DNA of 63,546 bases. Origin: an uncultured Dehalococcoidia bacterium (GTDB lineage: Bacteria > Chloroflexota > Dehalococcoidia > Lucifugimonadales > UBA3495). Location of the stretch: NCBI GenBank assembly GCA_950072105.1, contig CATMOE010000013.1:1-63546 (forward strand). Reading direction: 5' to 3'. Shown in pieces: positions 1-55,237 of this stretch (the first letter of the stretch is position 1; every line of letters starts with the position of its first letter). The position numbers and the translations under genes are program-made. The notes below the pieces were generated by a model that saw nothing but the letters and a program-made list of their open reading frames with translations, was not told the DNA's origin and did not search any database.

Positions 1-276
1 GAAGTACGAGGAAGTCTACCTGAAAGCCTACTCCAACGGACGAGAGGCCAAGGCTGGCCTCGACGGTTACTTTCATTTCTACAACAACCAACGGCCCCAC
101 CAGGCCTTGGGCTACCGGACACCGGCTGAGGTGTTCAACGGAGATTCGGTGCAATCGACAGAACACCCAACAGGGGGGAGATGGTCACCAAACAGAGCAT
201 TGGTAAACCTTGGAAACACGGCGGGACTCTCACTTAATAATGCCCCAATCCTGTCCTACTGATGGGGTCCACCTTA
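1..276 (+). mobile_element. IS3-family insertion sequence, right end (OrfB integrase C-terminus plus right inverted repeat)
   Basis: Frame from nt 2 reads KYEEVYLKAY...YFHFYNNQRPHQALGYRTPAEVF, the typical IS3 OrfB C-terminus, with stop at 260-262. The terminus ...GGGGTCCACCTTA (276) is the inverse of the end found at 63413. Confidence 0.9.
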
Positions 277-51007: not shown

Positions 51008-52609
51008 ATGCCGAGTTCTACCGCTCACGCGGACACGATAATTCGAAACGCCAACATCATAACCATCGACCCTGACCGGCCGCAGGCGCAATCCCTGGCC
51101 ATGCGCCACGGCAGGTTCATCGCCGTAGGAAGCAACGACGACGTTGCCGGGCTGGAAGGCCCCGGAACCAAGATATTGGATCTCAGCGGCAAAACGGTGC
51201 TGCCCGGTTTCATCGACGCCCACATCCACGTCCTGAGCAGCGGCATCCGCCACGTTATGGCCGCGGACTGCTCCCTCCCTTCCATATCGGCCATCAAGGA
51301 CGCCATGCGCCAACAGATCGAGCTGACCAAGTCCGGCGAGTGGGTGCAGGGGTTCAAGTTCGACGATACCAAAACCGAAGAGAACCGCTTCCTCACCAGG
51401 CAAGATCTGGATGAAGTCAGCACCGAACTGCCCATTCTGGTATCCCACCGGGCCGGCCACGTCTACTACTTGAACAGCAAGGCATTAGAAACGGCCGGTT
51501 TCACCCGGGACACGCCGGACCCTGTAGGGGGCCGCTTCGGACGTGACCCGTCGTCGGGTGAGCTGGATGGAGTGGTCTACGAAAGGGCCATCGAGCCGGT
51601 GCGCTACAACCACCTGCCCACCGTAACGCCCGAAGACCGCCGCCGGGGCCTGCAACGCATCTGCCAGATGCTGACTCCGGTTGGGCTGACCAGCGTTCAC
51701 GACGCCAGAGTAACCAACGACGAGATGTTGACCTACCAAGAGGGACGAGACAACGGCGATTTGACGTTGCGGGCCTACATATTGATGGCCCATGATCACT
51801 TTCCCGCGTTAAGAGACGCGGGGCTGAAGACCGGCTTCGGCGACGACCGGCTAAGGTTAGGCGGCATCAAGATGGTGGCCGACGGGGCCATCGCCTCCCG
51901 CACCGCCTATCTATCCGAGCCTTACGAAGGCTCCCCTTGCGACCATGGCATCCTGGCAATCCCGCCAGACGAGATCGAAAGGCAGGTGATGGAGATCCAC
52001 AAAGCCGGGTTCCAAGTCTGCATACATGCCAACGGTGACCTGACCATCGACATGGTATTGTCAGCCTACGAAAAAGCTCAGGCCGCCTACCCCCGACCGG
52101 ACCCCAGGCACCGCGTCGAGCATTGCACCCTGGTCAACACCGATCTCCTCAACCGAATGAAAGCCCTGGGGGCCGTGGCAACCCCCTTCTGCACCTACGT
52201 CTATTACCACGGTGAGAAGATGAAATTCTACGGGGAAGAGCGGCTGTCATGGATGTTCGCCCAGCGCTCGTTCCTAGACCACGGCGTCGTCGCCACCGGC
52301 GCTACCGACTACCCGCCCGGCCCCTTCGAACCCCTCCTGGGCATCCAGAGTTGCGTAACCAGGATTGACAGCACGGGCAAGATTTGGGGCGCCAACCAGC
52401 GGGTAACCGTGGAAGAGGCGCTGAAGATCTACACGATCAACGGAGCCTACGCCTCGTTCGAAGAGAACACAAAAGGCTCCATCGAACCAGGCAAGCTGGC
52501 CGACCTGGTAGTGCTGGGAGCCGACCCAACCAAAGTAGACCCGGAAACCATCAAGGACATCCCGGTAGAGATGACTATTGTTGGAGGGAAGGCGGTGTAC
52601 GGGGGGTGA
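51008..52609 (+). CDS. Amidohydrolase 3 family (YtcJ-like)
   Basis: PGFIDAHIH, K..ADG, HANGD, R.EH and GSIEPGKLADLVVL. Confidence 0.93.
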   Translation: MPSSTAHADTIIRNANIITIDPDRPQAQSLAMRHGRFIAVGSNDDVAGLEGPGTKILDLSGKTVLPGFIDAHIHVLSSGIRHVMAADCSLPSISAIKDAMRQQIELTKSGEWVQGFKFDDTKTEENRFLTRQDLDEVSTELPILVSHRAGHVYYLNSKALETAGFTRDTPDPVGGRFGRDPSSGELDGVVYERAIEPVRYNHLPTVTPEDRRRGLQRICQMLTPVGLTSVHDARVTNDEMLTYQEGRDNGDLTLRAYILMAHDHFPALRDAGLKTGFGDDRLRLGGIKMVADGAIASRTAYLSEPYEGSPCDHGILAIPPDEIERQVMEIHKAGFQVCIHANGDLTIDMVLSAYEKAQAAYPRPDPRHRVEHCTLVNTDLLNRMKALGAVATPFCTYVYYHGEKMKFYGEERLSWMFAQRSFLDHGVVATGATDYPPGPFEPLLGIQSCVTRIDSTGKIWGANQRVTVEEALKIYTINGAYASFEENTKGSIEPGKLADLVVLGADPTKVDPETIKDIPVEMTIVGGKAVYGG

Positions 52610-52628
52610 GCCTGAAATCATCCTCATG

Positions 52629-52658
52629 TTGACACCATCCCAGAGAACCCTTTAATCT
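52629..52658 (+). promoter_or_regulatory. Putative sigma70 promoter of the Grx-DinB selenoprotein gene
   Basis: TTGACA-18 bp-TAATCT, followed by AAGGAG RBS and ATG 52687. Confidence 0.5.
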
Positions 52659-52686
52659 ACCTCGGTAACTAGCCAAGGAGAGAGCC

Positions 52687-53448
52687 ATGGATGTTCATGT
52701 TTATACCAACCCTGGTTGATTCAGCTGCCGGACGGTAGAAGAGTTTCTGTCGTCTAACGGTGTTCAGTATGAGCACCACGACCTAGCCACCGACCAAGCA
52801 GCCGTAGAGTACCTGAGAAACCGCGACATCAAGTCGGTGCCGGTCACCATCATCGACGATGCCGAAGTCATCATCGGCTATTACCCCAAAAAGCTGATCC
52901 CGGCCTTGAATCTGAACGTCAAGATTGACCTGTCCAGCAAGACCAGTTGGCTGGCGGAAAAATACGACATCGTGCTTAACGGCGCAATTCGGGCCACCCA
53001 GCAGCTTACCGACAGTCAATTACAACAAGAAGTACCCTGGCGTCCCTGGAGCGTGCGGGATTGCATCGTGCACATCATCTCCTTCCCGGAGCTTGCCTGG
53101 CTCAGCCACAAGCAGGGCAGCATGAGCACTGATGACATGGCGGCCTCCAATGTGCGTATCAAGGACGTCGCCACCGTTGAAACCATCACCCAATATGGCA
53201 ACCAGGTCTTGGCCAACATCGATGGATTCCTGAAGAGCGGCGACACTGCCTCCTTCGACCGGGTGGTGCCCGCCCACTATGGCGGGGAGGTTACGGTTAG
53301 CGAATTGTTGAATATTATCCTCAGCCACAGCACCCACCATCTGAAACAGATGTACTGGCATATGGAGGAGGGCCTGGGGATCACGCCCCTAAACCCGGTT
53401 ACCGAGGCAGACACGGAGGGCATCGTAACCCCCACCGCTTTGATCTAA
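52687..53448 (+). CDS. Selenoprotein: glutaredoxin/NrdH-like domain (UxxC) fused to a DinB-superfamily domain; TGA 52717-52719 read as Sec
   Basis: MDVHVYTNPG-U-FSCRTVEEFLSSNGVQYEHHDL...KSVPVTII...IIGY is in frame with ORF 52837. DinB His motifs WSVRDCIVH and HSTHH are present, and a SECIS-like hairpin follows. Confidence 0.85.
52730..52755 (+). promoter_or_regulatory. Bacterial SECIS-like hairpin
   Basis: GGACGGTAGAA-GAGT-TTCTGTCGTCT: 11-bp stem (with G-U pairs) and a G-initiated 4-nt loop 21 nt after the UGA. Confidence 0.65.
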
Positions 53449-53689
53449 CGGTTTCCGGTAAATTACCAAGATTGCAGACGTGCAGAGAGTCCAGCCGTCA
53501 CCCCGATGGAAATCGGGGTCCAGAAACTTAGCTTGTGGACACGTTTCCTGGATTCCGGTCTTCATCAGAACGACGAAATGTTGGCTGACGGTCCACTGGC
53601 AGGTCAACAAGATGGCCAGATATGGCGGCGGGCTCAGGGAGAGCAGCCATTCGCCGTTGGGATTAACAATCTAACTGGGAGAACGAGCT

Positions 53690-55237
53690 ATGAAATATGA
53701 CGTGATAATTATTGGCGCAGGGTCGGCGGGGTCCATATTGGCCACACGCTTGACCGAGGACCCCAACCGCTCGGTGTTGCTGTTGGAAGCGGGCAAAGAC
53801 TACCCCAACTTCGATGACCTGCCTGACGAAGTGAAATTCGGCTACGCCACCGAGGCGGACGTCATGACCAGCGACCACAACTGGCAATTCATCGGCAAGG
53901 CTACGGACCAGGCTGGGCCGATGATGGTGCCTCGTGGCAAGGTCACCGGCGGCTCCAGCGCCATAAACGGTCAGGTCTTCTTGCGGGGAGTGCCCGAGGA
54001 CTACGACTCTTGGGCTTCGGAGGGCAACGATCAGTGGAACTTTCAGAAGCTGATCCCCTATTTCAACAGAGTAGAAACGGACCCCGATTTTCCGGGCGAC
54101 TTTCACGGCAGCGAAGGCCCCATAATCATGCACCGCTTCAAGCGGGAAACCTGGCTGCCCGCCCAGACCGCGTTCTACGAAGCCTGCATCGACGCCGGAT
54201 ATCAGGATTGCCCAGACCATAACAGTCCTGACTCCGAGGGGGTCGGCCCCACTCCCCTAAACAATCCCGGCGGCATCCGTATCAGTACCGCCATGGGCTA
54301 CTTGGACCAGTCAAGACACCGTTTGAACCTGACGATTAGGCCTGAGTGCCTGGTTCACCGTGTCCTGTTTGAGGGAAACCGGGCGACCGGGGTGGAACTG
54401 GAGAGCGGCGGCGAGACCTTTGTCGTCGAGGGCGACGAGATAATCTTGAGCTCCGGGGCCATCGGCTCGCCCCAGATATTGATGCTCTCCGGGGTCGGCC
54501 CGGCCGATCACCTGGGTAGCCTGGGCATACCAGTGGTTAAAGACGCTCCGGGTGTGGGGCAAAACCTAAGAGACCATCCGGCGGTGTGGATCACTTGGCG
54601 AACTAAGGAAGGTTTCCCTCTGGACGGCCTAGCCCCCAGGATGCAGTTGACCCTTCGTTACACGGCCGGAGACTCGGACCTGCGTAACGATATGAAGATA
54701 TCCATGCAGTCCTTCGCCACCCAGCCCGTCAACCAGGGCGGCGACCGCATGGAGCCCCTGGGCATACGCATGACTACCGGCATCTACCTGGCCGCCGGGG
54801 CCGGTGAACTGAAATTAGCCTCGGCGGATCCCGCAGCCCAACCGGTCCTGGACTACAACTACTTGAAAGAGGAGTCCGACGTCCGACGGTTGCGGGAGTC
54901 GGTGCGGATCTGCGTTGATCTGGGCGAGCACGAATCCTTCAAAGACATCATCCAGGAGCGAATCTCCCCAACCGACGCCGAACTGGCATCCGACGAAGCC
55001 TTGGACCAGTGGATATCTCGTGTGGTAACCACCTCTCAGCACATCTCATGCACCTGCAAGATGGGCCCGTCGTCAGACCCGATGGCGGTGGTGGACCAGT
55101 ACGGCAAGGTGCACGGCCTAGAAGGACTGCGTGTCGTAGACGCGTCCATCATGCCCGACTGCATCCGTGCCAACACCAACGTCACCACCATGATGATCGG
55201 CGAGCGGGTCAGCGACTTCATCAAGGACGGCAAGTAG
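53690..55237 (+). CDS. GMC family oxidoreductase (choline dehydrogenase-like)
   Basis: GAGSAG, RGKV.GGSSAING, SGVG and H..CTCKMG...VVDASIMP....NTN. Confidence 0.93.
   Translation: MKYDVIIIGAGSAGSILATRLTEDPNRSVLLLEAGKDYPNFDDLPDEVKFGYATEADVMTSDHNWQFIGKATDQAGPMMVPRGKVTGGSSAINGQVFLRGVPEDYDSWASEGNDQWNFQKLIPYFNRVETDPDFPGDFHGSEGPIIMHRFKRETWLPAQTAFYEACIDAGYQDCPDHNSPDSEGVGPTPLNNPGGIRISTAMGYLDQSRHRLNLTIRPECLVHRVLFEGNRATGVELESGGETFVVEGDEIILSSGAIGSPQILMLSGVGPADHLGSLGIPVVKDAPGVGQNLRDHPAVWITWRTKEGFPLDGLAPRMQLTLRYTAGDSDLRNDMKISMQSFATQPVNQGGDRMEPLGIRMTTGIYLAAGAGELKLASADPAAQPVLDYNYLKEESDVRRLRESVRICVDLGEHESFKDIIQERISPTDAELASDEALDQWISRVVTTSQHISCTCKMGPSSDPMAVVDQYGKVHGLEGLRVVDASIMPDCIRANTNVTTMMIGERVSDFIKDGK

Follow-up and report, generated by a model that had tools for sequence, protein, structure and literature searches.

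The gene at positions 52687..53448 on the forward strand of contig CATMOE010000013.1, from an uncultured Dehalococcoidia bacterium (assembly GCA_950072105.1), is very probably decoded with selenocysteine (Sec, U) and, judged from sequence comparison, encodes a fusion of a glutaredoxin-like (Grx-like) domain to a DinB domain belonging to SAR202-type Dehalococcoidia. The whole stretch of DNA that was analysed, 63,546 nt in length, is called the window in what follows. An earlier note on the window had proposed a hidden Sec redoxin/DinB fusion of 253 amino acids (aa) in which a TGA encodes the attacking residue of UxxC, and the TGA column in related genes, the Sec machinery of the genome and the cysteine (Cys) homologues all agree with that proposal. 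The open reading frame (ORF) listing of the window calls the gene from GTG 52837 with 203 aa. As had been read before, an AAGGAG and an ATG at 52687 open the same frame 50 codons 5' of that GTG. With the TGA translated as U, the product begins MDVHVYTNPG-U-FSC-RT and ends at TAA 53446-53448. The corresponding features are as follows.

52675..52680, forward strand: Shine-Dalgarno-like (SD-like) AAGGAG, 6 nt 5' of the start codon, read directly from the sequence
52687..53448, forward strand: predicted complete selenoprotein gene, 253 codons and TAA, Sec at codon 11 (translation with TGA as U; a single in-frame TGA in 26 other genomes)
52717..52719, forward strand: in-frame TGA read as U11, first position of U-F-S-C (UxxC), from the conservation of the TGA column

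It had also been expected that gene callers would truncate this gene. This is borne out by the best 120 database matches, most of which are forms of 201-240 aa named 'DinB family protein'; in the JGI annotation some truncated forms already carry the label 'DinB/glutaredoxin'. The fusion gene is therefore systematically mis-annotated in SAR202/Dehalococcoidia genomes, and the redox domain and the Sec are lost from their annotations because most database forms are such truncations.

Conservation of the TGA and the Sec machinery

We used two overlapping sets of genomes in order to follow the TGA column. The first consisted of 60 related genomes, of which 42 (the window's genome, G000, included) had a match to the read-through protein. 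A full-length orthologue with exactly one TGA was found in 26 other genomes at 54-89% identity, and the TGA occupies the same column in 27/27 full-length group-A genes, the window's included, within the motif Y/F-T-x-P-G-U-F-S-C-R-T. Two more matches begin at residue 24, one of them at a contig end. The other is in genome G031, where locus L049 (G031:C19) is without the first ~25 codons and a 30-residue TGA-bearing N-terminal piece of 73% identity lies at G031:C16:187868-187957; the gene was split by either a rearrangement or a mis-assembly. The second set came from a collection of 185,579 species, which contains 131 stretches coding for a relative of the query, the best 80 of them kept as loci. 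Among these best 80, codon 11 is TGA in all 79 parsable loci and TGC or TGT in none; the remaining locus is cut by a contig end.

We also considered RNA-type sequencing runs. In sixteen of them, half or more of the words sampled from 52400-53700 are present, and no run carries a variant at 52717-52719; contigs of four RNA libraries (four studies) span the TGA, a kind of record that cannot show transcription, strand or transcript ends. The window has C at position 52635, where T is read in each of the four RNA-library contigs covering the intergenic region. A nonsense mutation, a pseudogene or a sequencing error specific to this assembly, which the earlier note had itself listed as a way for its proposal to fail, found no support and can be regarded as already refuted: the TGA recurs in the 79 parsable loci of independent assemblies, in the four RNA-library contig sets, and in the Sargasso Sea and Global Ocean Sampling (GOS) reads described below.

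The TGA is likewise kept in more distant forms of the fusion. Group-B paralogues (33-38% identity) have Y-[FY]-R-P-G-U-F-T-C-G-R-T with TGA in 9/9 genes, and one of them lies in the window's own genome outside the window (G000:C37:17669-18409, locus L059:295-1044), with 36% identity and the start MPDPKVYFRPG-U-FTC-GRT. The single gene of group C (genome G036) retains the TGA in K-G-U-A-T-C. SAR202-type genomes thus keep two strictly Sec paralogues, which points to a selenium requirement for some reaction in a widespread marine lineage.

Several further genes deserve mention beside these. Locus L064 (G008:C7:572540-573904, 29% identity) reads YTT-C-A-U-F-H-S; the Sec is kept, the Cys at +3 is replaced by Ser, and there is a Cys at -2 (CxU). 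Loci L083 and L103, in metagenome-assembled genomes (MAGs) titled Candidatus Entotheonella or Entotheonellaceae, hold a group-A orthologue with TGA at 65-69% identity, which could reflect horizontal transfer or a binning error; the remaining group-A loci of the best 80 are all from Dehalococcoidia or Chloroflexota MAGs. Stand-alone Grx-like ORFs with one in-frame TGA each (~75 aa matched, 36-41% identity) occur 3-15 kb from the fusion gene at the following places.

G007:C1:1741516-1741737: stand-alone Grx-like TGA ORF
G033:C2:2603959-2604180: stand-alone Grx-like TGA ORF
G012:C22:8173-8394: stand-alone Grx-like TGA ORF
G014:C1:874392-874613: stand-alone Grx-like TGA ORF

The stretch before the TGA is coding, as its pattern of conservation indicates. 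This follows from the identity by codon position over codons 1-10 (0.89/0.96/0.66 against 0.43 for the 30 nt upstream, 27 orthologues) and from an SD-like motif 4-20 nt 5' of the start in 24 of the 27 orthologous loci. The ATG stands exactly ten codons 5' of the TGA in 23/27 orthologues. The two codons just 5' of the TGA (52711-52716) are nearly frozen, GGT in 27/27 and CCT in 23/27, even though four synonymous codons are available for each; Sec insertion may require this context. A lack of conservation upstream of 52837 had been named beforehand as evidence against the fusion; what was found is the coding pattern in codons 1-10 together with conserved residues 12-50.

The same data bear on a rival explanation, in which the TGA is a real stop, translation yields a DinB protein alone and begins at an internal codon, for instance GTG 52837, and the Grx part is left over, either untranslated or decaying. 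Gene callers predict exactly such forms (203, 214 and 237 aa), and under selenium limitation termination at UGA is expected to compete with Sec insertion. However, the conservation of residues 12-50 as a thioredoxin fold extends over different phyla and takes in the invariant C14 and E19-F20-L21, the coding pattern and the SD-like motif precede the TGA, decay is seen in none of the 79 loci, and the Cys homologues are uninterrupted and of the same length. We therefore consider a real stop very improbable.

The Sec-decoded fusion would depend on the Sec machinery, for which the earlier note had suggested to look in the genome. In the window's genome (92% complete), profile searches found selB (351.6 bits, cut-off 242), selA (550.1 bits, cut-off 268) and selD (385.3 bits, cut-off 125), and tRNA-Sec (selC) was found with 66.4 bits (cut-off 47), so that all four components are present above their curated cut-offs. 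The selD gene (G000:C60:2148-3071, locus L012) is itself a selenoprotein gene with one in-frame TGA, in SHCAG-U-AGK. TGA is an ordinary stop elsewhere in this genome: it ends 561 of the 2013 ORFs of at least 300 aa (28%), and the amidohydrolase gene upstream of the fusion gene also ends in TGA, with its Pfam match reaching the end of the model.

Next, we consider genes with a Cys codon in place of the TGA. The exhaustive representative search yielded 390 relatives at E<=0.001. All 23 fetched full-length distant homologues (21-29% identity) have Cys at the aligned position in uninterrupted ORFs, mostly in the motif W-Q-P-G-C-[ST]-S-C (S-C-F-N-C in P0191), and most have ERT.WH..QHTRQ near the C-terminal end; their source names are only 'glutaredoxin' or 'hypothetical protein'. 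The relatives of P0211 (n=124) come from cultured Ramlibacter, Paraburkholderia, Caballeronia and Burkholderia species and from alphaproteobacterial MAGs. From 80 of these proteobacterial loci, 78 were parsed, with TGC or TGT in 75 and TGA in 3, the latter all in alphaproteobacterial MAGs; Sec and Cys thus interchange at exactly position 11. Homologues with TGA or Cys at codon 11 had been anticipated along with conserved flanks; both forms were found, and the flanks YT.PG-U-FSCRT are conserved.

Three database proteins have neither residue at position 11, two with W and one with R (P0092, P0100 and P0088, respectively). We did not accept them as evidence of the Cys type; the W forms are taken as gene calls with TGA as W, because the P0100 cluster consists mainly of truncations of 184 and 221 aa. 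The R form, P0088 (253 aa, 69% identity, HPG-R-FSC), would be explained by loss of redox function, by an error in sequencing or by an unusual gene call. These three entries are what speaks for a non-Sec translation of the TGA, in which code reassignment or near-cognate read-through would insert Trp, Cys or Gly. Against it stand the use of TGA as the stop of 28% of the long ORFs, the complete Sec system, the origin of the W forms just given, and the fact that the position aligns with the catalytic CxxC Cys, since redox chemistry would be lost with Trp or Gly there. Such a translation is hardly credible, and decoding of this codon as Sec is the reading that we follow below.

Hairpins downstream of the TGA

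Two stem-loops lie in the coding sequence after the TGA, the first of them resembling a Sec insertion sequence (SECIS).

52730..52755, forward strand: SECIS-like hairpin 1, 11 bp (52730-52740 with 52745-52755), loop GAGU at 52741-52744, the loop beginning 21 nt after the TGA
52759..52777, forward strand: hairpin 2, 8 bp (52759-52766 with 52770-52777), loop GUA, 47 nt after the TGA, from the minimum free energy (MFE) fold

An 11-bp hairpin with a G-initiated loop had been described 21 nt downstream of the TGA; its coordinates and loop agree with hairpin 1, which also qualifies as SECIS-style by the definition given below. RNAfold assigns it -10.9 kcal/mol as the MFE structure of a 33- to 50-nt stretch. 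Over 27 orthologues, 81.8% of the cells of hairpin 1 are paired, with compensatory changes at 2 pairs, and 90.7% of those of hairpin 2, with both sides changed in 3 pairs. Taken together, the two hairpins have 85.6% of cells paired and 5 two-sided pair changes; sliding the 3' partners brings pairing to no more than 51.3%, and the observed score was reached by 0/500 shuffles of the 27-sequence alignment. We also compared the hairpins to synonymous recodings drawn from the codon usage of the window's genome (p<=0.05). Hairpin 1 is more stable than its recodings in 24/27 group-A genes. Hairpin 2 is more stable in 22/27 group-A and 0/10 group-B genes, and is absent from group B; it is too far downstream of the TGA for the usual SECIS window.

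In order to compare Sec genes to Cys genes, we counted SECIS-style hairpins by criteria of our own: a stem of 7 bp or more without interruption, a loop of 3-6 nt with G in the first two bases, and a loop start 16-37 nt after the codon. These are modelled on the bacterial SECIS (bSECIS) model. Such a hairpin is present in 47/79 group-A, 9/10 group-B/C and 3/3 proteobacterial Sec genes, in total 59/92 Sec genes versus 0/77 Cys genes. The hairpin ACGAAAGA-GUU-UCUUUCGU is common to the alphaproteobacterial Sec genes and SAR202 group B, and in the Cys genes the TKEFL peptide is also present but is written in different codons. A comparable, strong hairpin is found in the selD gene, where a GGU loop follows the UGA at a distance of 27 nt. 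Raw folding energy (+4..+48) was tried as a discriminator and rejected: proteobacterial Sec genes have a mean of -7.7 and Cys genes of -10.8 kcal/mol, and the measure is uninformative because GC content differs between the Sec and Cys genes.

Several observations weigh against the hairpins as SECIS elements. RNAfold on 74 nt of the window sequence favours another pairing over hairpin 1. The strict uninterrupted stem is found in only the 47 of 79 group-A genes mentioned above, the others having a mismatch inside the stem or a shifted register with a GGA loop. Hairpin 1 of group B beats its recodings in only 1/10 genes, so that it is not clearly beyond them, because the TKEFL peptide alone favours a hairpin. 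No SECIS or other credible family was reported in 52600-52900 by an Rfam E-value scan. Finally, the counts from shuffles and recodings overstate significance, because the genes compared are relatives and so not independent of each other. For this reason, and because the E-E-F-L peptide itself contributes to the potential to form a hairpin, the strongest single argument for the hairpin is the difference between Sec and Cys genes.

Domains, neighbours and possible function

The earlier note had described a Grx/NrdH-DinB fusion with the TGA on the first Cys of CxxC and a DinB His triad in the C-terminal half; Pfam recognises both domains, and the triad is invariant. Glutaredoxin (PF00462) matches residues 3-58 with 37.6 bits (cut-off 22.9), DinB_2 matches residues 103-222 with 44.3 bits (cut-off 24.8) and DinB scores 27.8 (cut-off 23), the latter two together covering 103-234. 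Across 42 family members, Glutaredoxin is found in 42/42 and DinB_2 in 37/42. NCBIfam has no full-length model and gives sub-threshold scores only for its Grx-like models; Uxx-star NF041212 reaches 36 bits (cut-off 66) and its families 1-3 reach 14-24 bits (cut-offs 72-100). The parts of the protein can be placed on the window as follows.

52687..52911, forward strand: NrdH/glutaredoxin-like thioredoxin-fold domain, residues 1-75, with U11-x-x-C14 and cis-Pro52 (Pfam, structure matches)
52942..53370, forward strand: DinB/YfiT (S-transferase-like, STL) four-helix-bundle domain, about residues 86-228 (Pfam DinB_2/DinB, VIA-align, Foldseek)
53071..53073, forward strand: His129 codon, first of the putative metal-binding His triad (42/42 Sec and Cys forms)
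53326..53340, forward strand: H214-S-T-H-H218, second and third triad His, HxxxH on the last helix (H214, H218 and Q221 in 42/42)

In the 42-sequence alignment of Sec and Cys forms, U/C11, C14, P52, H129, G200, H214, H218 and Q221 are invariant, P9, G10, E19, F20, L21, L43, R119, G245 and P249 are near-invariant, and the C-terminal domain has no conserved Cys. AlphaFold2 run on this alignment gave a two-domain model (predicted local distance difference test 93.4, predicted template modelling score 0.88) with the UxxC motif at the start of helix 12-23. The N-terminal domain superposes in VIA-align on the Sec-containing cGrx1 of Clostridium oremlandii (7c10) with Z 13.6 and a root-mean-square deviation (rmsd) of 1.1 A over 74 residues at 40% identity (sequence E 1.5e-21), and on the NrdH and BC3987 matches 1h75 and 3zij with Z 13.3-13.4. 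For the C-terminal domain (about residues 83-240), VIA-align found 2p1a (Z 16.3 over 150 residues) and 6iz2 (Z 15.5), also 2hkv and 3dka, followed by the mycothiol-dependent maleylpyruvate isomerase MDMPI (2nsg, Z 13.6), the mycothiol S-transferase of M. tuberculosis (8f5v, Z 12.3), the DinB domains of OvsA, EgtB and SenA (Z 10.6-12.0) and BstA of S. aureus (5wk0, Z 10.8); the top Foldseek match is YfiT (1rxq). No solved chain that matches both domains together was found in the sequence, Foldseek and VIA-align comparisons. Full-length matches to glutathione S-transferases (GSTs) were rejected as homology, their rmsd being at least 13 A in Foldseek and 5.5-6.7 A in VIA-align.

The spacing H129...H214-x3-H218 fits that of H67...H160-x3-H164 in BstA/YfiT. 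According to PMC5815605, these three His of BstA are the only fully conserved residues among eight B. subtilis STL enzymes, all eight of which are metal dependent, and the STL superfamily was formerly called DinB/YfiT.

The gene neighbours are catabolic. In the window the fusion gene lies between an amidohydrolase gene upstream and the following gene downstream, which is given for context only.

53690..55237, forward strand: GMC-family FAD oxidoreductase, the most persistent neighbour (Pfam GMC_oxred_N and GMC_oxred_C)

A homologue of this oxidoreductase lies within 1 kb in 53/80 SAR202-type loci, downstream on the same strand in 42/80, and is present in 11/19 loci of the 60-genome set. Other SAR202 loci have alpha/beta-hydrolase, SDR, isochorismatase, fumarase and other genes. 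The proteobacterial loci (n=80) have an SDR directly upstream in 25, TctC in 29, BKACE in 16 and a DsbA-like gene in 16, and an ABC ATPase is also seen.

We propose the following course of events, with translation presumably starting at ATG 52687. SelB and tRNA-Sec would decode the UGA at codon 11 as Sec, with the stem-loop 52730-52755 in the coding sequence directing the insertion. The N-terminal NrdH/glutaredoxin-like fold would then carry the U11-x-x-C14 redox centre and the C-terminal DinB/YfiT four-helix bundle a putative metal site made of H129, H214 and H218. This site may bind and polarise a small electrophilic or oxidised organic substrate, which the U11 selenolate would attack, leading to reduction, transfer or thiol-type isomerisation. 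Resolution of the adduct by C14 could then give a selenenyl-sulfide, leaving the U11/C14 centre to be re-reduced by a system of the thioredoxin-reductase type. A selenolate acting on a metal-held substrate is the simplest reading, because U/C11 and C14 are the only conserved redox-active residues and the His triad provides the only conserved putative ligands. We thus tentatively suggest, as a possibility that falls somewhat short of even, that the protein acts as a metal-dependent selenol/thiol transferase, reductase or isomerase on small organic substrates.

Two results count against this mechanism. GlrX_YruB (TIGR02196) scores 61.8 bits against a cut-off of 88.55 and NrdH (TIGR02194) 47.8 against 85.75, so that the N-terminal domain is NrdH-like in fold only, and no redox partner is encoded nearby in the window or in the SAR202 and proteobacterial loci.

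The mechanism put forward in the earlier note, a coupling of thiol conjugation to reduction, differs from ours; spelled out here, the DinB domain would be a conventional S-transferase of the bacillithiol, mycothiol or glutathione type, and the Sec-redoxin would only reduce or deglutathionylate mixed disulfides or recycle the thiol. The lineages of the proteobacterial Cys forms normally make glutathione. The C-terminal domain resembles 8f5v and BstA 5wk0, as given above, and the DinB/STL superfamily includes metal-dependent bacillithiol, mycothiol and glutathione transferases, according to PMC5815605. However, we found no match to BshC or GshB in the 92%-complete genome, and MshC (308 bits, cut-off 485) and EgtB (104.5 bits, cut-off 360) stayed below their cut-offs there, in a search of just these four thiol-pathway markers. 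A thiol co-substrate is thus not evident, and the failed markers weakly favour a protein-borne nucleophile over a free thiol. The N-terminal domain is nearest to NrdH/BC3987-type redoxins and not to glutathione-dependent Grx, and no thiol-biosynthesis gene adjoins the fusion gene in the 80 SAR202-type and 80 proteobacterial loci. On balance we regard a conventional S-transferase as rather unlikely.

A more specific form of the selenolate mechanism is speculative, and we give it a low probability. The fusion would be a self-contained metal-dependent 'selenol transferase/isomerase', in which a Sec of the protein itself (a Cys in the proteobacterial forms) takes the place of the free low-molecular-weight thiol needed by the characterised DinB/STL enzymes. 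It would work in SAR202 with the GMC oxidoreductase on oxidised electrophilic intermediates from the breakdown of recalcitrant organic matter, and in Proteobacteria with SDR/BKACE catabolic genes. If this were true, the enzyme would be a convergent metal-containing counterpart of the Cys-type GSTs and of the thiol-dependent maleylpyruvate isomerase. The Cys forms in cultured Ramlibacter, Paraburkholderia and Caballeronia are tractable systems for genetics and biochemistry.

Prior record and comparison to known systems

The fusion is an already known selenoprotein and not a new one, because it was catalogued in 2005 (Sargasso Sea) and in 2008 (GOS). In the supplement of the Sargasso Sea study, contig AACY01062556 is entered under 'Glutaredoxin, TGA position 31..33' with a protein that starts MKVDVFTHPGuFSCRTLEEFL, and seven QPHuTSC forms are printed as well; its main text gives 'Glutaredoxin (Grx)' with 10 sequences and UXXC (PMC1088965). 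Under '#Grx-like', the GOS supplement has the reads JCVI_READ_953865 and JCVI_READ_1440624, which start as AACY01062556 does, and ~40 Sec forms of the wider ~250-aa fusion, ending ...ERTVWHSTQHARQ..., and Table 2 of that study counts 42 selenoproteins and 255 Cys homologs for Grx-like, pfam00462 (e-value>0.001), UxxC (PMC2398784). By-eye comparison to the translations of loci L052 and L053 matches these entries to the fusion family in the N-terminal motif, the Sec at codon 11 and the continuation ...HIISFPELAYASH... The 'Glutaredoxin' of the Sargasso Sea and the 'Grx-like' of GOS are thus the same protein family, and partly the same clade, as the window gene. The novelty implied in the earlier note, which did not recognise the architecture as a characterised selenoprotein family, does not hold.

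Both studies assign the glutaredoxin domain only and give no organism, His triad or function. We counted 0 occurrences of the word 'DinB' in the GOS paper (PMC2398784; main text and searchable-text supplements), and likewise 0 in the main text of either review, from 2022 and from 2026, and in the supplements of deep-Sep. A literature search pairing selenoprotein with DinB gave nothing relevant, and one pairing SAR202 with selenocysteine gave nothing on this protein by title or abstract. The refinements over the prior record are the DinB/STL assignment, the lineage and the strict retention of Sec, and the invariant three-His DinB/STL domain turns the label 'glutaredoxin(-like)' into a testable enzyme hypothesis.

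Among the known systems, cGrx1 of Clostridium oremlandii (7c10, 7c12) is the best match for the N-terminal domain in both sequence and fold. The 2026 review describes it as a Grx that contains Sec and has the motif U/CxxC/S; unlike the fusion, it is a single domain of ~85 aa without DinB. NrdH-redoxin and the YruB-type and BC3987-type redoxins have the thioredoxin fold, the N-terminal CxxC and the cis-Pro in common with the N-terminal domain, and the fusion differs from them by the Sec in place of the first Cys, by the attached second domain and by scores under their cut-offs. The Uxx-star and HUGP/GUXX-star glutaredoxin-like selenoproteins of NCBIfam have a distant Grx-like similarity to the fusion, with NF041212 below its cut-off as given above. 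Sec lies near the C-terminus in those families and at residue 11 in the fusion.

BstA/YfiT, mycothiol S-transferase and MDMPI share the four-helix bundle and the H...HxxxH triad with the C-terminal domain. These enzymes use a free low-molecular-weight thiol and are without a fused redoxin, whereas the fusion bears a protein-borne Sec/Cys centre. In canonical GSTs and the DHAR/omega-class GSTs a thioredoxin-fold domain is followed by a helical domain, as in the fusion, and the whole-length comparisons reach Z 9-10 (1gwc, 5el8). However, the helical domain of the fusion is a metal-binding DinB bundle and not a GST C-domain, so that the likeness is one of analogy and not of homology. Finally, the sulfoxide and selenoxide synthases EgtB, OvoA, OvsA and SenA join a DinB-type three-His domain to a second domain that gives specificity, and multi-domain STL enzymes are discussed in PMC5815605. 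The partner domain of these synthases is FGE-sulfatase-like and C-terminal, whereas in the fusion it is an N-terminal redoxin.

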